A stretch of DNA of 53,202 nt from a virus (IMGVR_UViG_3300045988_160612:1-53202), one strand, 5' to 3'. Numbered from the stretch's first letter, positions 22,689 to 48,447 are shown. The notes: a model not told the origin generated them from the letters alone. Numbers and translations are program-made.

Positions 22689-23681
22689 TTAAGCTCCAAA
22701 GCGCTCTTTATCCTTAGTATAGTGTGCATTTAACTGCTGTTGAGATAAAGCGCTGTTATAATATGCTACCCTATAAAGGTTATATGCCCCTTGGGAGTAA
22801 TATGTGCCCCCTCCTCCAACACACCCGATGTATGGCGCTTTTGTAGATTTTTTGTAGTCTGCCAAAATCAAGTTCAAACTTTCGCTGAGTTCTCCGTTCA
22901 AATAGAGGTTAACAACTTTGCCATCATAAGCTACAGCTACATGGTATTTTGTATCATTATTATAGGGAACTCCAGCAGTGTAGATATATTCTCCTGTAGT
23001 TCCATTAAAGATACCAAAGTTGAGTTTATTGTTTTCTGTAAAAACACCAAAACCTGCTCTGTCAAAATTGTTTATTATATCATTTTCAGAGGTATTACCA
23101 CCTGTAATCTCAAAAAACAACTCCAGCGTGAAATTGTCAGCATCAAAGAGTATCGGTATTCTTAAAGCGCTGTCTGCTCCTGACTCTTTAATGTAATGGT
23201 CTGAGGACAAAAGGGCTTTGCCTGTATCAACCAAATAACGCCTCATTATTGCTTCACTTGACATATCAAGCCAATATGCTCCGTTATCAGCATGACCTTG
23301 ACAAAAATTATAAATACCATCAAAAAATAATTCTGACCCAGAAGTATATCCCAAAATTTCTGGCGTTATTCTTACCCCATCACCCCCTTTCTGACTTGAA
23401 TTAAAATTTGAGCCAGGCGCCGATGTGCCTGCTACAGTAACAGACCCTGAACCAGTCAAATAAAAAGTATCTCTATGCTCTAAATGTAAATAATTGTAGC
23501 TCTCTCCATTTGGAATTGTTACAACTCCATCATCTCCTGCAGCCCTACCAGGAATAAGAGACATAATTACATCTGAGCCAGAGTTATTTTTTACTTCAAA
23601 GCCTAAATAGGTCCTATCAAATTTTATTTCATTTTCACCTGATTCCAATGTTATCTCTTTTACTCTCGCACTTATTACCAT
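22689..23681 (-). CDS. Tail fibre or receptor-binding protein with a C-terminal LamG/concanavalin-like domain.
   Basis: FTLELFFEITGG...YHVAVAYDGKVVNLYLNGEL. The start was set to the ATG at 23681 after AAGGAGG. Confidence 0.6.
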   Translation of the reverse strand: MVISARVKEITLESGENEIKFDRTYLGFEVKNNSGSDVIMSLIPGRAAGDDGVVTIPNGESYNYLHLEHRDTFYLTGSGSVTVAGTSAPGSNFNSSQKGGDGVRITPEILGYTSGSELFFDGIYNFCQGHADNGAYWLDMSSEAIMRRYLVDTGKALLSSDHYIKESGADSALRIPILFDADNFTLELFFEITGGNTSENDIINNFDRAGFGVFTENNKLNFGIFNGTTGEYIYTAGVPYNNDTKYHVAVAYDGKVVNLYLNGELSESLNLILADYKKSTKAPYIGCVGGGGTYYSQGAYNLYRVAYYNSALSQQQLNAHYTKDKERFGA

Positions 23682-23704
23682 AACAAAAACCTCCTTTTTC
23701 AAAA

Positions 23705-24472
23705 TTATGCTGCTGAATTGGAAACTATCCAACTATCTGTATATGTACCAGCACCAACAAAACCGCGGTCGATTCTTCTAAATCCACCGTTTGTATCACG
23801 AACTGTACCGTCCTCATTATATCGGGTCATACTGTAGTTAATTTCACAAAAACTTGAACCATATGTAATGGAAGTTATTTCAAACAATGGCTCTTTTGTC
23901 GTGGCTTCATTCCAGCCCCAGTTGACTGAATAGCAGTTTCCTGTAACCGACTCCCCTGTATTTAAATTAGTTACCGTATATTTATATGATAACGTCCAAT
24001 ATTTTTCCTGTATCGGGTGGGGAGTTTTCTCAACCCAGAATTTAATTTGGACAGAATTTCCTGAATTAGTTACTGTATCAAAATCGCCAGCAGAAATATT
24101 CAAATAATCATTTGTATTATCTGTATTACCTGTTGGAATGGAATCGGGAACATTTATTCCATCATCTGTAGTGTTGTCTGTGCCACCGTTTACTGTGTAA
24201 TTATACAAGTCTTTGTACACACTTGATACATTTACAGGGTCAAAACCTTGTACCCCATAATCTGCAGCGTGATATGTGCCAGGCTCTGTTACCGATAATT
24301 CTTGCAAACTTACAATTTTTTTTACATCAACTATAACCGGATTATAACCTATATATCCTTGCTCTTTTTCAGTGTCAGATAACTGCACAATACCATTTTG
24401 AGCTATAATTATAGACTTTACTTTGCCAGCAGTTGTACCATAGCTGGCGAGAGCGCTTGATATCAAACCCAT
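23705..24472 (-). CDS. Tail fibre or receptor-binding paralog B.
   Basis: The N-terminal ~95 aa are homologous to 24484..25272 (GKVK, GYIGYNPV, LQELSVTEPGTY, GFDPVNVS..YKDLY). The C-termini are unrelated. Confidence 0.55.
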   Translation of the reverse strand: MGLISSALASYGTTAGKVKSIIIAQNGIVQLSDTEKEQGYIGYNPVIVDVKKIVSLQELSVTEPGTYHAADYGVQGFDPVNVSSVYKDLYNYTVNGGTDNTTDDGINVPDSIPTGNTDNTNDYLNISAGDFDTVTNSGNSVQIKFWVEKTPHPIQEKYWTLSYKYTVTNLNTGESVTGNCYSVNWGWNEATTKEPLFEITSITYGSSFCEINYSMTRYNEDGTVRDTNGGFRRIDRGFVGAGTYTDSWIVSNSAA

Positions 24473-25272: not shown

Positions 25273-25502
25273 GATGTACCGCCTCCAGAGGACTTATATG
25301 TGCGTTGCCAAGTAGGGTTTTGCTTGCTGCCGTCCTCCGCTAAAGTCCAAGAGACTGTAACATCATACGGAGCGTAGTGAAATGTAAGGGAGTTAGTACC
25401 TGGCATTGTACCTAATAATGGATAAGTACAAATAAGGTCTCCGCCAAAGTAGTACAACCCATCTTTGAGCGCAACTGCTTTTAATTTGGTGTCATTAGCC
25501 AC
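25269..25502 (-). CDS. Small tail-module protein, hypothetical.
   Basis: The start was set to the GTG at 25502 after GGGAGG. The track start at 25520 is TTG. Confidence 0.45.
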   Translation of the reverse strand: MANDTKLKAVALKDGLYYFGGDLICTYPLLGTMPGTNSLTFHYAPYDVTVSWTLAEDGSKQNPTWQRTYKSSGGGTS

Positions 25503-26556
25503 TGTTTGTCGCCTCCCCAACTCCAGAATCGTCCCAAACTGCTCCTATTTCCTGAGACACTGTAAACCCATTATATTTTACATTTAACTCTACTCTTCTT
25601 TGCAAATCTCTTTCCGTCATTCCGATGTACTCAAAATCTGATATCTGCCTACCATTACATGATACAGATGTATAAATTCCTTTTGTTGTCAATTTATAAT
25701 CTGCATTCATAACATAATAGGTTGCTGTCTCATTTACAAACTTTATCTGACACATAGGCGGTAAGAATCTATCAACTTTTACAGTTTCACATGATACATC
25801 TGCACCAAACGATTTACCAATTAAGCTTGTCAAACTAACATTAGTTGTTATATTAGGGTCTGCTAATGGGCATACTAATCTTAGCACTCCAGATGGCTTT
25901 GGCTCCTCTGAACCTCTGATTATGTATATTCCCATACTCTCTAACGTTTTCCCCTCTGCTGTTTGCCCATTGCTTAAAAGTGTGGGCATTTCCATATTTG
26001 ATTTAAAAATATCAATTTCAGAAATTTTTACATCTGTAAATCCTTTTGTTAATACAGAATAATCATCTTGACCAATTTCCAAATAATCAGAAGTCAAAGA
26101 AAATTTTGCTTTTCCAAATTCAGAAACTTCTACAGCATAATTGGCTGCACTTAGCATCGAACCATAAGAAAACAAATCCCTTATACTCCAACCAGTTTCT
26201 CCCTCTGTATTTTTAGTTGCTGCTGCCGATGGAATATCAACATCTATTGTAATTCCCGATAATATTGTTAATTCCTCTTTTGCTTTCTGGAATTGCTCCC
26301 CAACAGTACCAACCATTTGATAAGAGTTATCAAGATAAGCGCTTACATCTTGCCCCGAAAACTGTAAAGAATTTTCCACAACTGCACATGATTTCATGAC
26401 CCATTGATGTAAAACTTTTAAGGTTCTATCTGCCAATTTCCTGTACAGCGTAATAAAAGCATTTAACTGTATATCATTATTTTTATAAACTATATTTCCA
26501 GAAATTGTTAAACCAGCACATTGACCAACGGTAAAACCATCAGAAGATACTGACAT
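25495..26556 (-). CDS. Tail (baseplate or tip) protein. The frame stays open to 26664 upstream of the first ATG, so it may be made as a +1 frameshift fusion with 26639..27034.
   Basis: 353-aa ORF in the tail module. There is no SD in front of the ATG at 26556. The 36 in-frame codons upstream contain no ATG, GTG or TTG. Confidence 0.6.
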   Translation of the reverse strand: MSVSSDGFTVGQCAGLTISGNIVYKNNDIQLNAFITLYRKLADRTLKVLHQWVMKSCAVVENSLQFSGQDVSAYLDNSYQMVGTVGEQFQKAKEELTILSGITIDVDIPSAAATKNTEGETGWSIRDLFSYGSMLSAANYAVEVSEFGKAKFSLTSDYLEIGQDDYSVLTKGFTDVKISEIDIFKSNMEMPTLLSNGQTAEGKTLESMGIYIIRGSEEPKPSGVLRLVCPLADPNITTNVSLTSLIGKSFGADVSCETVKVDRFLPPMCQIKFVNETATYYVMNADYKLTTKGIYTSVSCNGRQISDFEYIGMTERDLQRRVELNVKYNGFTVSQEIGAVWDDSGVGEATNSG

Positions 26557-26638
26557 TGATATGGATAAATCTTCTGGAATTTCATCATTTCCATACTGAA
26601 TTCCACCAACTTCTAAAATATAATCCCAGTAATCTGAG

Positions 26639-26653
26639 CTACCCCGAACCTCC
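26639..26653 (-). other. Candidate programmed +1 frameshift site: GGAGGU-UCG-GGG-UAG.
   Basis: An SD-like GGAGGU is followed by a 3-nt spacer, a GGG codon and an in-frame UAG. The +1 frame (GGU AGC UCA...) is the open frame of 25495..26556. Confidence 0.45.
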
Positions 26654-27034
26654 AGAAAAATTTGTTACTTCTTCCAACAAAACATCTGGCAAGGTCCAAA
26701 ATTTTCTGCCATCATCGGACACAAAGTAGGAAGCTGCTGGGAGATTTTCACAAGTAAATTTCTTTGTAACCGAGCCCAGTTGCGGGTCAATATACTCAAC
26801 AGAAATTTCTCTTGATGATTTTATACTTGTGAACAATGTTTGTATCTGACTATTTTCCATAGGCTCAAAAGATATAGTTAATTGTCTTTTATCGCCTAAG
26901 TAATTCCTAATTGTTTTTCCTGAAACTGCTACATAATTTGGAGAGCTTGAAAACTGCTCAACTATTTTTACATCATAACTTTTTAAATACTTGTCAATTA
27001 TCGTACCGTTAATTTTTATCGAAAACATCTGCAT
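26639..27034 (-). CDS. Minor or distal tail protein, directly downstream of the tape measure gene.
   Basis: Its position after the TMP. 131 aa. Confidence 0.55.
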   Translation of the reverse strand: MQMFSIKINGTIIDKYLKSYDVKIVEQFSSSPNYVAVSGKTIRNYLGDKRQLTISFEPMENSQIQTLFTSIKSSREISVEYIDPQLGSVTKKFTCENLPAASYFVSDDGRKFWTLPDVLLEEVTNFSGGSG

Positions 27035-27048
27035 AATTCAAGCCCTCC

Positions 27049-30000
27049 TTATACCCTAAGATTTAAGTTACCAGAACTTTGAGCATATGAATTTAATGCT
27101 GCTCTGGAAACTCTTGCAAACTCTGTCTCATCAATTTCTAACACGATATCCCCATCGGGCTGTGCTTCTTTTATAGCACTTACCACATCTGCTTTTGTAA
27201 GCCCGCTACCACCATAATAGCGATTAAATGTGTTGTTATATGCTGCTGTATTTTGCGTGCCATATCCGCCACCGTAGATGGGTGCAAACGCCTGTGCAGT
27301 TGCTCCGGCTACACCAGAAGTTCCTGACATAAACTGATTTACACTACCAAAGACTGTAGCCCAGTCAATATTAAAATTATCTGTAAATGTTTTTGCTGCT
27401 CTCTCAGCCAAATTAGAAAATACATCTAATACACTTTGCTGATATCCAGACAAACCATTTATAAATCCTTGCATTACATTCTGTCCTACTTCCTCATACA
27501 CTGTGGAGGGGGAATGTATTCCAAGAAGATTCTTAACTTCATCAAGATTTTTAGTCATGATTTCCTTTAATGCACCCTCACTCTGGTCTGCATTATCCTC
27601 AATTCCTTTAACAAAACCTTGAATGATTTCCTCACCTACTAATTCAATTCCCTCAGGAATTTTACTAAATATATTTTTAAACTTTTTACCATAATCCTTT
27701 TCAAAAGCATCAATTTGTGTCTGATAAAATTTATCAGAAAACTGCTTGCTTTCATCGACCAATTTATCATACTGTTTGCTATATGTTTTTAAACTCTGAG
27801 CAGACATATTGTTTAAACTCTCGGCATACTTAGAACCCTCTTCCATATCCATGCCAAGAATTTTCTGTAACAGATTTTGACTAATTCCTTTTGACTGCAA
27901 TTTTTCTAATGTTTTATTATACTTCTCAACCTGCTTTATCTGGTCTTTTAAACCCTGAGTAGAAGCTGTAAAAGTTTCTTTCTCCTCATAAGCCTGCTTT
28001 GTACTATTCCAAACTCGCTTTGTTTGTCTCTCATACAAATCAACGGAATTTACTAAATTATTATATAATGTTTTTTGTGATTCAGATATTTTGCTATATG
28101 CTGTACTTGCCTCAGACTGTAAATCTTCATAAGACTTTTGCCAAGTCGAAAATGCTTTTTCTGCATTTTCCTGGTCTTGCTTTGCGACCTTATCGCCCAT
28201 TTCTTTTCTGCCCAAAACAATTTTTTTATTTATCTCTTTGTACAGGGAATCTGTCTTATCTAATCCATCACGGATTATCTCCATATCCTTGTACATCATT
28301 TCCTCGGTGTAGCCCTCTTCTACGCTATTTCTGTATTCTAAATCCGATATTCTTTCTCTAATGTTATTTTCAAATTCTGTCCTTTGCTGTTCTACCAACT
28401 GCTCTTGTTCTTTTGCATCTTGCTCCTGCTGCCTCTTTCTTTCTTCCGCCTGCTGTTCCTCATACTTTAATGATTTATTATATTCCTTTATCCAGGTCTG
28501 GTCGTATTCCTGCCTTGACGTTTCAAGCAATTCTTTTCTTTGTTTTTGGTACTCTTCTTCCGAAGATATTTGACGTAATTGCCATTTCCTATCAAGCTCA
28601 CTTATATCTTCCCACATTTTCTCGGTTTTTCTTGCTTGCTCTTCCGCTTGCCTTTCCTTTTCTGCTATCTCATCTGCATGGATTTCTTTATCCTTTGCTT
28701 CTCTGTCCCTTGCATACTGATTCTGAGTATCAATAGTTGCCTCTAACGAATCTCTATAAACACCCTCTACTTTTTCGCCAGCATCAAGTCTAAGCTGTAC
28801 CATTTTTTGTTCGCCCTCGGCTAACTGTTGCTCTGCTTCAAACTGTACATTAGTAGCTTGTACCCATGCTTCTGATAATTCTTGCCATTGCTCCTTGGCA
28901 TTATTATAATACGTTCTCATGTAATTGTCAATATCCATGCCAAATTCTTTAGCTTCTTTTATCCTCTTGCCACTAACATCGGCAGTTCCATATTTAGCAA
29001 ACTTTTGCCACTCTTTTTCTGCCTGTAAATAAGCATCATGAGCATCTAAAACTTTTTGCTCTAACTCCTCAGCCTGTTCTTTAGCTTCATTCAAAGTATT
29101 ATACAGTGTAACATTTTTCTGAGACTGTGCTTCCAACTCTGCCTGCGCTGCCAACTTTTGTGTATAGGCATCAACTTGGAAAACCAAATCTTTATATCCT
29201 TGTACCTGGTCATCAATATAAGCTTTATTTTCTGGGAAAATCTCATTTAATTGCTCAATAATTTGCTGCGCTGCTGACAACTCAGTCGCTGTCAAATTAG
29301 CTTTATCTGCATATTCTCCTAACATATTAGTTAGAGTAACCAACTGATTTATCTGCTCATTATTTGCCGAAGCAGTTTCATTATATTGATTCTGTGCATC
29401 TACCATGGAATTTTCTAACTTCTCAGAATTTTCCACCAGTTCTTTATACTCAGAATTTAATTCCTTATATTGTTGAATTGCTTCCGATATTTTTTCACTA
29501 TGCCTAACATATGCAGCAACTACTAACGCTATACCAGCTGCAACTGCTGTATATGGATTAGCTAACATTGCTGCATTGGCTGCTAATTGTGCAGTTTTTA
29601 ATGCTATCAATTTGGCAATAGATGTTTGTACAACAGTATTGCAGGCAACTAAGCCGGCTGTAAAAATAGGTATTGCAGTTACAATTCCCGCCAAAGCTGC
29701 TTTTACATCAATTATGATATCTTTTATTTTGGTACCAAAATTGATTAAATTAGGAATTGCAGTATTAGCAGCAAAATCCACAATCTTTACAAACAAATCC
29801 CCAGCTTCCTGAGATATCTTTTGTAAAGCTTCTTGCATCTCGCTTGACTGCAATTTTTTGTTTAGCTCATCGATAGATGTAGTTGCTGATTCTACAGCCT
29901 GAGTAAAATTAACTTTTAAGGAATCATATGCAGCAATTCCAGCACCCTCTAACGCAGATTGGAAAATTGTTATTGCACCTTTCAAATTTTGCTGCATTGT

Positions 30001-31026
30001 CTCAGCCATCATTGCTGCTGCATCATTACTATTTTCTATGTTATTATATAAATTATCCCATTCTTCACTATATCCTGCCAGCAAAGCTCTCGCCGATTTC
30101 AGCTGTCTTGCATCAAAGATATTTGCAAGTGCTGTGTCTCTTTCTTGCTGGGTGGCCATGTTATTAAGAATATCATTTAATTCTCCGAAAATCTGATTTA
30201 ATGGCTTCATATTGCCAACTGCATCATACGCAGACAAACCAATGGAGTTCATATATTCCGCAGCTTTTTCTGTGGGAACTGTCAAGTTAAGTAAAACTTG
30301 TCTTAATGCTGTGCCACCCTCGGCTGCCTTAATACCATTATTTGCAAGAATACCTAAAGCTGTATCAAGTTCTGTAACCCCACCAGCTAAACTTCTTGCT
30401 GTACCACCAATAGTGAGAATACCCTCCCCTAATTGTGCTACATTGGTATTTGATTTCTGGGAAGTTTTTGCCAATTTATCTGTAAATGAAGCAGCTTCAT
30501 CTATAGACAAGCCCAAAGCTGACATACTATCCGTAACCATGTCGGAAGCTTTTGCTAAGTCCATATCTCCAGCAGCTGCTACATTAAGAATTGTAGGGAG
30601 TAACGATATACTTTCCTCAACATTATAACCTGCTAATGCTAAATAGTTCAAAGCATCAGCAGCCTGTGTTGCTGTGTATTTTGTTGTTGCTCCCATTTCC
30701 TTGGCTGCTTCTGCCAAAGCATTATACTCATCAACATTATTTGCTACATCTTCCGCAGTCATGCCCATTGTAGCTGCTACTTGCGCCATAGAAGCTTCAA
30801 AGCTCTGGCCTACGTCCAAAACAGACTTCATTGCTAATGTAGCTGCTGTTGTAACTGCTGCAAATGCAGCTGCTGCCGCTTTTCCTGCTACATCAAAAAC
30901 ATTACTTAAACCATCAACAGCTGCATCTAGCTGCTCTGTTTTGGTATGGACCTCATCATACTTGCTTTGGAAGTCACTAATGTTTAATTTTATGTAGCCT
31001 ATCGCATCTCCAAGATTATATGCCAT
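27049..31026 (-). CDS. Tail tape measure protein.
   Basis: 1325 aa with an Ala/Gly-rich helical N-terminus containing hydrophobic segments and long E/K/Q coiled-coil repeats. It follows the chaperone pair. Confidence 0.9.
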   Translation of the reverse strand: MAYNLGDAIGYIKLNISDFQSKYDEVHTKTEQLDAAVDGLSNVFDVAGKAAAAAFAAVTTAATLAMKSVLDVGQSFEASMAQVAATMGMTAEDVANNVDEYNALAEAAKEMGATTKYTATQAADALNYLALAGYNVEESISLLPTILNVAAAGDMDLAKASDMVTDSMSALGLSIDEAASFTDKLAKTSQKSNTNVAQLGEGILTIGGTARSLAGGVTELDTALGILANNGIKAAEGGTALRQVLLNLTVPTEKAAEYMNSIGLSAYDAVGNMKPLNQIFGELNDILNNMATQQERDTALANIFDARQLKSARALLAGYSEEWDNLYNNIENSNDAAAMMAETMQQNLKGAITIFQSALEGAGIAAYDSLKVNFTQAVESATTSIDELNKKLQSSEMQEALQKISQEAGDLFVKIVDFAANTAIPNLINFGTKIKDIIIDVKAALAGIVTAIPIFTAGLVACNTVVQTSIAKLIALKTAQLAANAAMLANPYTAVAAGIALVVAAYVRHSEKISEAIQQYKELNSEYKELVENSEKLENSMVDAQNQYNETASANNEQINQLVTLTNMLGEYADKANLTATELSAAQQIIEQLNEIFPENKAYIDDQVQGYKDLVFQVDAYTQKLAAQAELEAQSQKNVTLYNTLNEAKEQAEELEQKVLDAHDAYLQAEKEWQKFAKYGTADVSGKRIKEAKEFGMDIDNYMRTYYNNAKEQWQELSEAWVQATNVQFEAEQQLAEGEQKMVQLRLDAGEKVEGVYRDSLEATIDTQNQYARDREAKDKEIHADEIAEKERQAEEQARKTEKMWEDISELDRKWQLRQISSEEEYQKQRKELLETSRQEYDQTWIKEYNKSLKYEEQQAEERKRQQEQDAKEQEQLVEQQRTEFENNIRERISDLEYRNSVEEGYTEEMMYKDMEIIRDGLDKTDSLYKEINKKIVLGRKEMGDKVAKQDQENAEKAFSTWQKSYEDLQSEASTAYSKISESQKTLYNNLVNSVDLYERQTKRVWNSTKQAYEEKETFTASTQGLKDQIKQVEKYNKTLEKLQSKGISQNLLQKILGMDMEEGSKYAESLNNMSAQSLKTYSKQYDKLVDESKQFSDKFYQTQIDAFEKDYGKKFKNIFSKIPEGIELVGEEIIQGFVKGIEDNADQSEGALKEIMTKNLDEVKNLLGIHSPSTVYEEVGQNVMQGFINGLSGYQQSVLDVFSNLAERAAKTFTDNFNIDWATVFGSVNQFMSGTSGVAGATAQAFAPIYGGGYGTQNTAAYNNTFNRYYGGSGLTKADVVSAIKEAQPDGDIVLEIDETEFARVSRAALNSYAQSSGNLNLRV

Positions 31027-31328
31027 TAAGTATTAGTCACCCCCAAACTTGCATAAAAATCGGACATTGATTTATAGTGTTTTTTAGGTTTGTCCCCATT
31101 ATCAAACTTCAATTCTTTTCCATCTTCCAACGCATCTAATAAAAAAATACAAGCTTCATCAAAGCAATATGCAGCATATTCTTTCCGAATATTTAAAATA
31201 TCACTTGGACGTTGCTTGTATTTTTTTGACATAGCTAAAATATTAAGAATTTGCGGGGACCTCACAAAATTTAGACAATTTTGCTGCATCAAGCTTAACA
31301 GCATCAAAAATAGCAAAAATCTGCTCAT
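31026..31328 (-). CDS. Frameshift extension (T-like part) of the tail assembly chaperone.
   Basis: It overlaps the 3' end of 31243..31674 in the +1 frame, has no RBS of its own, and ends at the TMP start. Confidence 0.5.
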   Translation of the reverse strand: MSRFLLFLMLLSLMQQNCLNFVRSPQILNILAMSKKYKQRPSDILNIRKEYAAYCFDEACIFLLDALEDGKELKFDNGDKPKKHYKSMSDFYASLGVTNT

Positions 31329-31674
31329 CTGTTAAACCACCAGTATATTTGTTAATATCCTCTATTGTAGGATTTACCAAACAGCTTTCTGCAACATATT
31401 TCATAAACTTTATAGATTCTATCTTTGCTTTTCTGCTCTGCTCTTCTCGTGCTTCCTTTTCTGCTTCACTTATGTTTTCCTTAGCAGCTTCCTCGCCAAT
31501 AACTTTCATTGCATCACCGATAATGGGATTATAAATCCTGCCGGAACATACCATATCAATGATAGAGGGATTTTTTAACTCTACTGTTAATTTACTTCCA
31601 TCTGCAAAAGGAGGAAGCTCAACAACAAATGTATTTTTTATTTTCGCAAGTTCTTCTATTGTAGTCACTGACAT
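31243..31674 (-). CDS. Tail assembly chaperone (G-like).
   Basis: It lies between the major tail protein and the TMP. It is acidic, 143 aa, and has an overlapping downstream frame. Confidence 0.7.
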   Translation of the reverse strand: MSVTTIEELAKIKNTFVVELPPFADGSKLTVELKNPSIIDMVCSGRIYNPIIGDAMKVIGEEAAKENISEAEKEAREEQSRKAKIESIKFMKYVAESCLVNPTIEDINKYTGGLTDEQIFAIFDAVKLDAAKLSKFCEVPANS

Positions 31675-36579: not shown

Positions 36580-36666
36580 TGGTGCTGGCAACGGGATTTG
36601 AACCCGTATGATATTTCTACCGAGGGATTTTAAGTCCCTTGTGTCTGCCGATTCCACCATGCCAGC
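36580..36666 (-). tRNA. tRNA-Leu (anticodon UAA), type II, CCA encoded.
   Basis: GCUGGCA acceptor pairs with UGCCAGC. The D region is GGAAUCGGCAGAC. The anticodon loop CUUAAAA sits on a 5-bp stem. It has a long variable arm and the T arm ACGGG-UUCAAAU-CCCGU. Confidence 0.9.
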
Positions 36667-36672
36667 AATTTC

Positions 36673-36759
36673 AGAACACAGCTAAAGTGCAGAAGCAAAA
36701 CCCTTTCATAAATTTTAGCTAAACTCATAAAACAAGATTTGCCATAATAGCTGTGTTCT
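36673..36759 (-). other. Unassigned structured spacer: 12-bp perfect stem (agaacacagcta / tagctgtgttct) closing a 63-nt loop between the two tRNA-Leu genes.
   Basis: Read directly. It has no tRNA T-loop or anticodon architecture. Confidence 0.6.
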
Positions 36760-36761
36760 TT

Positions 36762-36846
36762 TGGTACTCCAAGTGGGATTTGAACCCACACGCCTTTCAG
36801 CAGCAGTTTTTGAGACTACCTTGTCTGCCCATTCCAACATTGGAGT
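36762..36846 (-). tRNA. tRNA-Leu (anticodon CAA), type II, CCA encoded.
   Basis: ACUCCAA pairs with UUGGAGU. The D region is GGAAUGGGCAGAC. The anticodon stem GUAGU/ACUGC carries the loop CUCAAAA. It has a long variable arm and the T arm GUGGG-UUCAAAU-CCCAC. Confidence 0.85.
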
Positions 36847-36848
36847 AT

Positions 36849-36870
36849 ATTCCGCGGGGTACCGCGGAAT
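36849..36870 (-). other. GC-rich 9-bp hairpin (attccgcgg-ggta-ccgcggaat) abutting the 5' end of tRNA-Leu(CAA).
   Basis: Read directly. It is strikingly GC-rich for this genome. A U-run follows it only on the plus strand. Confidence 0.7.
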
Positions 36871-36925
36871 TTCGTTTTTCATTTTTAACCAGGTTGAAAT
36901 GCTTATTAAAAACTTTCCTGGTTTT

Positions 36926-37001
36926 TGGTGTGCCTGGAGAGACTTGAACTCTCGACCCATAGATTAAAAGTCTATTGCTCTACCGACTGAGCTACAAACA
37001 C
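36926..37001 (-). tRNA. tRNA-Lys (anticodon UUU), CCA encoded.
   Basis: The acceptor GUGUUUG/CAGGCAC has two G.U pairs. The D arm is GCUC-AGUCGGUA-GAGC. The anticodon arm is AUAGA-CUUUUAA-UCUAU. The T arm is GAGAG-UUCAAGU-CUCUC. Confidence 0.9.
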
Positions 37002-37014
37002 ACAAATGGATTTT

Positions 37015-37090
37015 TGGTTAGGATAGCCGGATTTGAACCGGCGAAATGACGGGGTCAAAGTCCGTTGCCTTACCTCTTGGCCATATCCTA
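37015..37090 (-). tRNA. tRNA-Gln (anticodon UUG), CCA encoded.
   Basis: The acceptor UAGGAUA/UAUCCUA has U1-A72, as in bacterial tRNA-Gln. The D region is GCCAAGAGGUAAGGC. The anticodon loop is CUUUGAC. The T arm is GCCGG-UUCAAAU-CCGGC. Confidence 0.9.
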
Positions 37091-42628: not shown

Positions 42629-43996
42629 TCAATACCTGCTTCCTTTTCTCGTATTTGTTGTTATTTCCTTAGGGTCAGCTATATCAACTCTATCTAACGC
42701 ATACCAAATAGCTGATAATGTATGTGGGTCAATATTAAAATCATCATATACTAAATTACCTTGCTTATCCTTTTTATACGTTAGATTTTTTAATTCCCTT
42801 ATTACGTTAATACAACATGGGGCACAAATGATTCTTTTAAATCTTTTAACTTTTTTAGTATAACTTAATCTACTTCCTGCAAACTTCTTAGCTCCACGCA
42901 TTCTATATCCCATATCGTTATAAAACTTTATTGCCTTAGGGTCCTCACTATCTGCTATTATATTATATTTCTTAAATTTCTTAAATTGTTCATCATTAGC
43001 CGTTTCCATATCTGTCATGTGGTTTTTATAATATTCCCTATAAATATATAATATCTTATTTTCCTTATCCACTGCTACATTAACTAAAGCATTATAAGAT
43101 TCCTCAAATCCAAAGTCCATTCCTGTAAATATATTTCTTGCTCCTAAATCTCTTACTTTTTCATATACTTCCTTGTTAGTTTCTGCTACTTCAAACTGAG
43201 GCAATACCCGCATTCCATTGGCGCCAAATTTGCCTAATTTAGCTACTCTGTATAAATCAATATCATATGACTTCATATCCTCTAATCTGTCCAAATATGC
43301 TTGCGGTAAATAGGGATTATCTTCTGGGATAGAATGATGATAATATGTTTTTCCTAACCTTATAACTTTCTTTTCGTATAACTCTTCATCATCTAAAATA
43401 ACTTGCTCTTTTCCTAAATTATCAACTCGCTTGAAAAACATACGATATACCCAGTTATTTTTATCCACTGGATTAAATGTTAAAATAAAGTGCATTGATA
43501 AATCTGGGCATCTTACACGACCTAAAAGCTCATTATAACCTGCTGCTTTTACCTCACTTGCTTCCTCTATCCATACAATAGAGACATTATTTATAGACTT
43601 TACCTTTTCTGGATTATCCATTCCTTTAAATATGATTCTGGAACCATTAGGGAATTTAAACTGCAAAGGGGATTTGTGAGCAACCACCTTTGTCTTTGCT
43701 ATTTGCCTATTTCCACGCCCTATTTCTAACATATCCATATCATCTAATATTTCATATAATAAACTATAACAACTTTCAAATATAGTATCAAAAACTTCTC
43801 TAACAACTAAAACTGTACGTTTTTCCTGAAAACATTTTAAAACAATTTTTAATGCTGTATTATAACTTTTACTGCTTCCATAGCCTCCACAAACTACATA
43901 TATTTCAGAATCCCAATCAAAAATATAATCATAAAATCTAGGGGCTACTTCCTTATTTACCTGTTTAGGCTCGCTTTTTCTTTGCTGTCTTACCAC
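42629..43996 (-). CDS. terL: Terminase large subunit.
   Basis: VVCGGYGSSKSYNTA is Walker A-like and VSIVWIEEASE is Walker B. The C-terminal nuclease half and the synteny also agree. Confidence 0.9.
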   Translation of the reverse strand: MVRQQRKSEPKQVNKEVAPRFYDYIFDWDSEIYVVCGGYGSSKSYNTALKIVLKCFQEKRTVLVVREVFDTIFESCYSLLYEILDDMDMLEIGRGNRQIAKTKVVAHKSPLQFKFPNGSRIIFKGMDNPEKVKSINNVSIVWIEEASEVKAAGYNELLGRVRCPDLSMHFILTFNPVDKNNWVYRMFFKRVDNLGKEQVILDDEELYEKKVIRLGKTYYHHSIPEDNPYLPQAYLDRLEDMKSYDIDLYRVAKLGKFGANGMRVLPQFEVAETNKEVYEKVRDLGARNIFTGMDFGFEESYNALVNVAVDKENKILYIYREYYKNHMTDMETANDEQFKKFKKYNIIADSEDPKAIKFYNDMGYRMRGAKKFAGSRLSYTKKVKRFKRIICAPCCINVIRELKNLTYKKDKQGNLVYDDFNIDPHTLSAIWYALDRVDIADPKEITTNTRKGSRY

Positions 43997-47663: not shown

Positions 47664-48143
47664 TTAATTTTCAAAGTCCCACACAAATTTTCTAAGTTGT
47701 ATACCTGCCTCATTCAACAAATTATCTGCCAACTGAGATGGGTAAAAATCATCATATATAACTACAGATATTCCAGCATTAATAATCAGCTTTGCGCATT
47801 CTGCACATGGTTTATGTGTACAGTACATAATTGTATCTTTGCAGCTGATTCCCAACGCTGCTGCCTGTAAAATAGCATTTGCTTCGGCGTGTACAGCTAA
47901 ACACTCATCATGCCCTTGACCATGACCAAAGCCCAGCTGTCTTTTCCGACAAAAACCATAATCATATGCGCAATTTTTAATGCCCTTAGGAGCACCAGAA
48001 TACCCTGTAGCAATTATTCTTTTATCTTTTATGATAACAGCACCTTTATGTGCAGATAAGCAGGTACTTCTTTCGGAAGCTGCGTATGCTATTTTCATAA
48101 AATATTCGTCCCATGAAATTCTACTCTTCTTCTTTGATTCCAT
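47664..48143 (-). CDS. dCMP deaminase (ComEB / T4 Cd-like).
   Basis: The zinc motifs HAEANAI and PCAECAKLI are present, and the N-terminus is WDEYFM. Confidence 0.9.
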   Translation of the reverse strand: MESKKKSRISWDEYFMKIAYAASERSTCLSAHKGAVIIKDKRIIATGYSGAPKGIKNCAYDYGFCRKRQLGFGHGQGHDECLAVHAEANAILQAAALGISCKDTIMYCTHKPCAECAKLIINAGISVVIYDDFYPSQLADNLLNEAGIQLRKFVWDFEN

Positions 48144-48447
48144 TTACCGATTCCTCTTTTTCTTTTATCTCATCTAATTGGTCACCAATATTGGCCAAAA
48201 TATGATAATACTGAATATTATACTGCTGCAAAAATGGCTTTAATTTAAATATTAGCTGCTGTTGTTCCAGCAAAACTTCCTTTTTATTTTTAAATTTTTC
48301 GAACATTCCATATGTGTAAATAGTAGTCAGATATTTTTTACCACATTTAGGACACTGAATATACCTTACAACGACATTAGACCGAAGCGGTAACGTTTTT
48401 TTGACTTCTAACATTAAATAAGCTTCCACAACCGTCTTCTGCATCAC
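48121..48447 (-). CDS. Hypothetical protein.
   Basis: 108 aa containing CPKCGKK. Confidence 0.5.
   Translation of the reverse strand: MMQKTVVEAYLMLEVKKTLPLRSNVVVRYIQCPKCGKKYLTTIYTYGMFEKFKNKKEVLLEQQQLIFKLKPFLQQYNIQYYHILANIGDQLDEIKEKEESVNGIKEEE

Follow-up and report, generated by a model that had tools for sequence, protein, structure and literature searches.

The viral contig IMGVR_UViG_3300045988_160612, whose whole 53,202-nt length was analyzed and is called the window here, carries two adjacent tail-tip genes in different reading frames that are very probably decoded as one. Open reading frame (ORF) A, predicted to encode a Dit-like ring subunit, and ORF B, predicted to encode a gp27-like baseplate hub, would be joined when a fraction of ribosomes shift frame by +1 at GGG_UAG_C, a programmed event for which the UAG stop codon and an upstream GGAGGU element resembling a Shine–Dalgarno (SD) sequence would act as stimulators. 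Decoding of this kind would yield A alone together with a 512-aa A–B fusion. All genes and elements of the A–B junction lie on the minus strand of the window.

The junction between ORF A and ORF B

ORF A (26639..27034, 131 aa) ends at UAG as the zero-frame product, and its 3′ end reads GTA ACA AAT TTT TCT GGA GGT TCG GGG TAG, followed by C. ORF B was called at 25495..26556 (353 aa from its first ATG) in the +1 frame relative to ORF A (start offset 478 mod 3 = 1), and a protein started at Met 26556 would begin MSVSSDGF. Frame B is open from 26664, directly after a TAA at 26667..26665, and 36 codons with the translation QIFLEVRGSSDYWDYILEVGGIQYGNDEIPEDLSIS precede its first ATG, GTG or TTG, which is the ATG at 26556. 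Among the 70 ORFs of the window this start-free open stretch is the longest, the runner-up being 19 codons, and the 20 nt 5′ of ATG 26556 (CAGAAGATTTATCCATATCA) hold no SD sequence. A first-pass annotation of this DNA had described the end of ORF A, the offset of the next gene, the 36 start-free codons and the missing SD in the same terms, and both the sequence and the ORF list agree with it. Its companion statement, that nearly every gene here has a GGAGG-type ribosome-binding site, was too generous: a simple scan found GGAG, GAGG or AGGA at −20 to −4 in 47 of 70 ORFs, a count that is an underestimate because the longest ORF was taken as the start.

Frames A and B overlap by 26 nt (26639..26664), from the +1-frame TAA to the frame-A stop, and any change from A to B is confined to 26664..26639 because frame B is closed by TAA 26667..26665 and frame A by UAG. 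This overlap contains the GGAGGU element (26653..26648), which is the proposed stimulator and could pair with the anti-SD sequence of 16S rRNA, a 3-nt spacer TCG (26647..26645), and the putative shift site GGG_UAG_C (26644..26638), made up of GGG (26644..26642), UAG (26641..26639) and C (26638). The first-pass annotation had likened this layout to the +1 site of prfB, the gene of release factor 2 (RF2), and the likeness holds for the SD-like element, the 3-nt spacer, the shift codon and the stop followed by C; it does not extend to autoregulation of the RF2 type. By analogy, the 3-nt distance from the SD-like element to the shift codon would be the spacing that favors forward slippage in prfB. 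Re-pairing from GGG_U to GGU (26643..26641) in the +1 frame retains the first two base pairs and leads into frame B exactly as had been proposed, with GGU followed by AGC UCA GAU UAC UGG. Across the 70 window ORFs, glycine is encoded least often by GGG (89 of 876 Gly codons; GGT accounts for 341), and the stop codons are TAA in 49, TGA in 18 and TAG in three.

Decoded after the shift, ORF B would span 25495..26640 (381 codons plus stop) with AGC 26640..26638 as its first new codon, and the annotated ATG 26556 would become an internal Met of the A–B fusion. The conceptual fusion comes to 131 + 381 = 512 aa, the size first estimated, with a predicted junction of NFSGGSG-SSDYWDYILEVGG. Glu-C digestion is predicted to release the junction peptide VTNFSGGSGSSDYWDYILE after a shift at GGG, or VRGSSDYWDYILE after a shift at a U5 run (AAU UUU UCU, 26660..26656) that had been put forward as an alternative slip site.

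In the mechanism we propose, the ribosome would translate the Dit-like ORF A until the rare GGG, its last sense codon, occupies the P site with UAG waiting in the A site. Termination would be slow, with UAG read only by release factor 1 (RF1), a C after the stop, and GGAGGU 3 nt upstream pairing with the anti-SD. In a fraction of ribosomes the peptidyl-tRNA-Gly would then move +1 onto the common GGU, and AGC UCA GAU UAC UGG would be read on through the gp27-like hub, so that termination would give the 131-aa A and shifting the 512-aa A–B. We infer from sequence the ribosomal nature of the event, the choice of GGG as slip point within the overlap, the efficiency of shifting and the part played by the SD-like element.

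Forms of the junction in related phages

Relatives that encode A and B as a single ORF place the two halves in one protein. With the conceptual fusion as query, BLASTP identified five proteins of 516–529 aa at 38–44% identity; they cover 98–100% of the fusion, with the linker and all 36 start-free codons inside the aligned region. An exhaustive profile search found five further single-ORF forms of 526–551 aa. The ten fused relatives overall (P0002–P0006, P0028, P0030, P0032, P0033 and P0037) measure 516–551 aa, at 29–46% identity. Two more single ORFs were read from DNA at L016:2001-3635 and at L018:2001-3584, the latter in a Clostridia metagenome-assembled genome (MAG), and the single-ORF locus of L004 lies at 579-2147. 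The stretch before ATG 26556, which had been judged protein-like, holds the motif W.Y.L..GG..Y.NDEI..L.IS, kept in all lineages, and where near-identical contigs differ within the stretch, the substitutions fall at third positions of frame B or are conservative there. With a family motif and changes of the coding type, these codons are therefore translated, which a start at ATG 26556 cannot achieve.

For most lineages the conceptual +1 products differ from single-ORF relatives by at most two residues in linker length, and the single-ORF and split forms are related by 1-nt indels exactly at the recoding site: L016 has GCG GGG TTA ATT where split forms have TCG GGG TAG C, and L004 has GGT TTG GGC where split forms have GGT TAG GC. 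Comparison of split and fused forms indicates that A and B are one gene by ancestry. In L016, a +1 slip at GGG_U would hit UAA at once and could in principle yield an A-only product; a shift-to-stop device that makes A alone was sought in the single-ORF relatives, with no firm result.

The junction of the window is shared by six separate assemblies of near-identical phages (the window, L001, L002, L005/L013, L006/L014 and L015; L005/L013 and L006/L014 are two IMG/VR contigs). Flanking synonymous changes, including GGA to GGG and TCG to TCA, differ among the six, and an assembly error is unlikely because the same junction stands among different synonymous neighbors. The L005 junction reads TCT GGG GGT TCA GGG TAG; its TCA GGG TAG makes the G4 run of the window dispensable and thereby excludes a homopolymer miscall, and GGAGG can evidently be GGGGG.

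A search with ORF A alone recovered 20 protein clusters, all of 131–136 aa with a C-terminal Gly or Leu and, except for one that is near-identical, 50–64% identical to ORF A. We read the DNA of eleven diverged lineages (L003, L007, L008, L009, L012, L017, L020, L021, L022, L023 and L025), and in 11 of 11 the frame is broken in the same linker, ORF B is intact, and the order is tape measure gene, A, B. The first-pass annotation had recommended comparing the junction in related phages, and this comparison supports its interpretation: the same or an equivalent signal, or a single fused ORF, stands at this spot in relatives. From the start of the open frame to the called start codon there are 23–61 frame-B codons in nine of the eleven lineages. 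The exceptions are L008, where TTG is the first open codon, and L023, where an ATG follows after 10 codons; L020 additionally has in-frame ATGs inside the pre-start stretch. Eleven of 12 lineages end ORF A with TAG, a stop codon used by only three of the 70 window ORFs, and each of the eight +1 lineages has C directly after the stop (TAG-C or TAA-C). The pattern of codons at the site indicates that they are selected.

The junctions fall into three classes. Class I (GGG TAG C, with TAA in L020; frame B +1) comprises the window group, L008, L017 (a Ruminococcus MAG), L022 and L020. All class I lineages have GGG immediately before the stop, and GGG_UAG_C recurs in L008, L017 and L022, lineages only 50–60% identical in ORF A. 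A purine-rich SD-like element stands 3–5 nt 5′ of the site, as GGAGGT in L008, GGGGGT in L005/L006/L015, GGAGGC in L017, GGAGAT in L022 and GGAG-TAT-GGG in L020. An out-of-frame footprint of such a site, xRGS or QGS, appears in the miscalled N termini of B proteins at 25–30% identity: the B-only proteins P0042 (MKTFQEVRGS...), P0061 (MEGRGS...), P0031, P0041 and P0044 contain CGG/CAG GGT AGC translated out of frame in their N termini. On this evidence the class I site probably reaches lineages that are only 25–30% identical in B.

Class II (CTT TAG C TGG CAA TAT; frame B +1), at L012:2880-2915 and at 2380-2415 in L021 and L023/L024, has the prfB shift codon CUU_U with UAG replacing UGA and no SD-like element upstream. 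Class III (GGT TAG GT or GGT TAG GC; frame B +2) is found at L003:2110-2135 and at the ORF A ends of L007, L009 and L025 (about 2890-2920 or 2395-2415), with GGAGG 1–2 nt 5′ of GGT. The layout GGU UA GGY, in which the stop comes directly after the take-off codon, is present in four of four class III loci, and a hop across it gives a linker length exactly equal to that of the nested single-ORF relative P0002. Class III is best read as a candidate 5-nt hop of peptidyl-tRNA-Gly from GGU over UA onto GGY, which would make it a candidate natural short stop-hop. A −1 slip was considered as a general answer for the +2-frame relatives and rejected, as no re-pairing is possible in L007 or L025.

Bypassing in T4 gene 60 likewise uses a Gly take-off codon followed by UAG and a matching landing codon downstream. 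The gene 60 gap is 50 nt and is accompanied by a take-off stem-loop and a nascent peptide, whereas the class III gap is 2 nt; class III would therefore be a short stop-hop and not bypassing of the gene 60 type. Synthetic stop-hops (Weiss et al. 1987, summarized in PMC5009743) have a layout of Gly take-off, UAG and landing codon like that of class III, and a 2016 review lists no natural in-frame stop-hops as known (PMC5009743). In a rough neighbor-joining tree of A domains, class I is widespread and paraphyletic, classes II and III form one clade each, and single-ORF forms nest within the tree at three or more points.

The proteins on either side of the frame break

An AlphaFold2 model of the A–B fusion, built on a 43-sequence alignment, has a mean predicted local distance difference test (pLDDT) score of 87.5, and residues 126–133 at the junction are its only disordered internal stretch, set between two confident folds. 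For B (residues ~134 onward), Foldseek gave a probability of 1.0 for the top 40 matches with E values down to 3e-12. These matches include 3cdd (MuSo2 43-kDa protein, E 3e-12), the Mu hub 9ki1_G, 3gs9 (Listeria prophage gp18), NF5 Tal 9m7n_A, T4 gp27 1k28_D and VgrG1, and B is predicted on this modeling to be a gp27-like baseplate hub or Tal N-terminal-type module. Downstream of the hub, a 347-aa protein (22689..23732, minus strand) contains a Laminin_G_3 or concanavalin-A-like lectin domain (E 2.5e-16) and is likely a receptor-binding tail protein; an equivalent of this gene is present in L004 and L009.

ORF A matches phrog_1194 (E 9e-16), and its AlphaFold2 model alone has a pLDDT of 86.6. 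Its fold superfamily is clear, with Foldseek template modeling (TM) scores of ~0.45–0.55 to tube, terminator and Dit proteins alike; fold matches include 8iyk_E (a 109-residue lambda tail-tip chain that we take to be gpM), the T5 tail tip 7qg9_G, the NF5 baseplate 9m8o_I and the gene transfer agent structure 6toa_G. ORF A also resembles many stand-alone ~120-aa proteins of uncultivated gut siphophages (BFVD, TM 0.75–0.85). It lies directly downstream of the tape measure gene (27049..31026, 1325 aa), an order that is the same in all relatives and makes ORF A and ORF B the first two tail-tip genes; the relatives' equivalent of the tape measure gene carries PF10145 PhageMin_Tail. By fold and position, A is modeled as a minimal Dit-like ring subunit, with the Dit label taken from gene order.

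Upstream of the tape measure gene is a presumed tail assembly chaperone pair, a 143-aa ORF at 31243..31674 and an ORF at 31026..31328 (minus strand), whose offset is +1 and not the usual −1. Their 89-nt overlap contains GUC CCC GCA and ends AAU UCU UAA, and given the +1 offset the tail genes may contain a second +1 shift.

Pfam returned no family for A or B, a PDB sequence-profile search returned nothing meaningful, and searches of phage records gave no match either by megablast of the locus or by tblastn of ORF A and the fused homolog P0033. Scans of metagenomes and genomes found no loci with a full-length alignment and a few loci only with an ORF A alignment. The large terminase (42629..43996, minus strand) shares at most ~56% identity with its counterparts in the phage records searched (Clostridium phage phiCp-D, bajarodcaudo virus 5). 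Sources of the relatives are MAGs of Ruminococcus and Clostridia as well as assemblies from gut or rumen. We assign the phage to an uncultivated lineage of Firmicutes siphophages.

Alternative explanations, recoding precedents and tail assembly

The junction could instead separate two proteins, with A ending at UAG and B started at ATG 26556, or by termination–reinitiation near the stop at a non-canonical codon, and no fusion made. Gene callers annotate every assembly in this way, ~120-aa stand-alone A-like proteins are common in other siphophages, and in a few relatives an ATG of frame B falls on the site itself. Separate starts are nonetheless improbable for the window: frame B has no ATG, GTG or TTG over 36 codons here and over 23–61 codons in most relatives, the called ATG has no SD, and the codons that such a start would skip are conserved as protein and form part of the fold of single-ORF homologs. 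No ATT, ATC, ATA or CTG near-cognate start lies at SD distance from GGAGG, and selection for GGG and TAG-C would be left unexplained. A fusion made by a +1 ribosomal shift at the U5 run instead of GGG_UAG, with the product VTNF-LEVRGSSDYW, is very unlikely. UUU_U permits perfect re-pairing inside the overlap and TTTT also stands at the same place in L008, but L017 and L022 have no T run there and yet keep GGG_TAG_C. The run, a possible slip site in the window, is thus not conserved; the conserved elements are GGG, TAG and C, and no slow codon or stimulator is placed for U5. Readthrough or reassignment of TAG was rejected, since frame A meets TGA 18 codons past TAG and the window has no suppressor tRNA; its tRNA cluster (36580..37090, minus strand) encodes Leu-UAA, Leu-CAA, Lys-UUU and Gln-UUG, with no tRNA-Gly. 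Recoding at the other two TAG-ended ORFs (4400..5341 and 48121..48447) was likewise rejected, as both are ordinary, with an SD and ATG on the next gene.

That split and single-ORF relatives such as L016 and L004 differ by 1-nt indels at the exact site also fits a broken gene, in which a 1-nt deletion split the ancestral ORF and the hub is not properly made in a decaying element, or, in a milder form, is rescued by trace unprogrammed slippage. We give this explanation very little credence: the split persists across lineages 50–60% identical in A, ORF B is intact and conserved in all split lineages, the remainder of the 53-kb genome is intact, and specific codons are selected at the site. The tail-tip hub of siphophages (Tal/hub proteins) is, moreover, normally indispensable. 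Least probable is an artifact or an event at the RNA level, namely an assembly or sequencing indel in G4 or T5, or transcriptional slippage by RNA polymerase. Short homopolymers do lie inside the overlap, but the break is common to the six assemblies, L005 has only GGG, and homopolymers are lacking altogether in classes II and III; runs of 4–5 bases are also shorter than the lengths known to give useful transcriptional slippage.

Several observations weigh against programmed frameshifting at GGG_UAG_C, the reading we prefer. Predicted RNA structure downstream is no better than in shuffled sequence (z = 0.14), which would leave the stop codon and the SD-like element as the only stimulators; the latter is not universal, being absent from class II (CUU_UAG_C). 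A UUU_U slip 12–16 nt upstream would also reach frame B in the window. In L020 (2380-2400), AT GGG TAR C is seen directly to place a frame-B ATG right at the shift codon, with GGAG 3 nt from GGG and only 1 nt from that ATG, and the N termini of P0029 and P0049 suggest that they probably have the same arrangement; in these phages the hub may be started separately, or both routes may operate. Single-ORF relatives in at least three clades mean that an A-only product or a fixed ratio is not obviously essential. Their recurrence weakens the idea of two products by design and leaves scope for an old 1-nt indel that is tolerated because translation corrects it. Favoring a selected short product or ratio, recoding at this junction has survived long divergence and has arisen anew in three forms, and stand-alone A-like proteins exist elsewhere. 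Because B has no start codon of its own and encodes a normally indispensable component, the shift is probably needed for infectivity.

Frameshifting at GGG_UAG_C would be a mechanism of a known kind. Its closest phage analog is the pair of SPP1 tail tube genes 17.1/17.1*, where a +1 shift at CCC_UAA moves from rare CCC to frequent CCU (PMC6316719), and the tsh genes of Listeria phages PSA, A118 and A500 use a +1 shift at CCC_UGA (PMC5009743). All are tail structural genes with a rare NNN_U last sense codon and a stop in the A site, and in all the slip is onto a commoner synonymous codon (CCC to CCU there, GGG to GGU here), with short and long products of common N terminus expected. The SPP1 and Listeria extension is a dispensable FN3/Ig-like decoration domain on a tube protein, whereas the extension here is a complete 381-residue gp27-like hub without its own start codon; the shift codon is Gly and not Pro, an SD-like element lies 3 nt upstream, and the stop is UAG in nearly all lineages.

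The prfB site (AGGGGG-UAU-CUU_UGA_C) shares with GGG_UAG_C the order of SD-like element, 3-nt spacer, shift codon, in-frame stop and C, as well as P-site +1 re-pairing with two of three pairs kept, and class II (L012, L021 and L023) has the identical CUU_U. The prfB stop is UGA, read by RF2, whereas the stop here is UAG, read by RF1, and the shift codon here is GGG; autoregulation is not expected because the products have tail-tube-like and gp27-like folds and are not a release factor. In RECODE all CUU_stop +1 cases are prfB genes (PMC10885494), so that use in a phage tail gene falls outside that set. Lambda gpG/gpGT is likewise a conserved frameshift of the tail block near the tape measure gene that gives short and long products with a common N terminus. 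Shifts of that type are usually −1 on a heptanucleotide upstream of the tape measure gene and make chaperones absent from the virion, whereas the A–B shift would go +1 at a stop codon 3′ of the tape measure gene and join two structural tail-tip proteins. In the literature searched we found no description of a Dit/Tal or hub frameshift, of an SD-GGG_UAG_C site, or of three devices at one junction.

Gene callers split the gene in all assemblies seen, which leaves the hub annotation with an incorrect, shortened N terminus and hides the link between Dit and hub; recognition of the site corrects annotation across a group of uncultivated gut and rumen Firmicutes phages. At one position the family also provides a natural series for comparison: a signal of prfB type in a gene other than prfB, the SPP1/Listeria device with Gly as the shift codon, a candidate stop-hop, and single-ORF revertants as controls. 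A wider proposal is tentative and, in our judgment, rather doubtful: that one Dit–hub junction is served by three interchangeable devices (SD-assisted GGG_UAG +1, RF2-type CUU_UAG +1, and a 5-nt hop confined to one clade) with repeated reversion to a fused ORF, the purpose being a fixed ratio of free ring to ring–hub chains. If true, the class III hop would be the first naturally used short stop-hop, and an arrangement of, for example, three free ring and three ring–hub chains would reconcile a six-fold ring with a three-fold hub. That the shift serves to set the A:A–B ratio, as in a six-fold ring of three A and three A–B chains bearing a trimeric hub, is speculative, and such a ring would demand a different solution in single-ORF phages. 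For tail assembly this offers a testable idea, that frameshifting may set the ratio of a six-fold ring subunit to its covalently attached three-fold hub.

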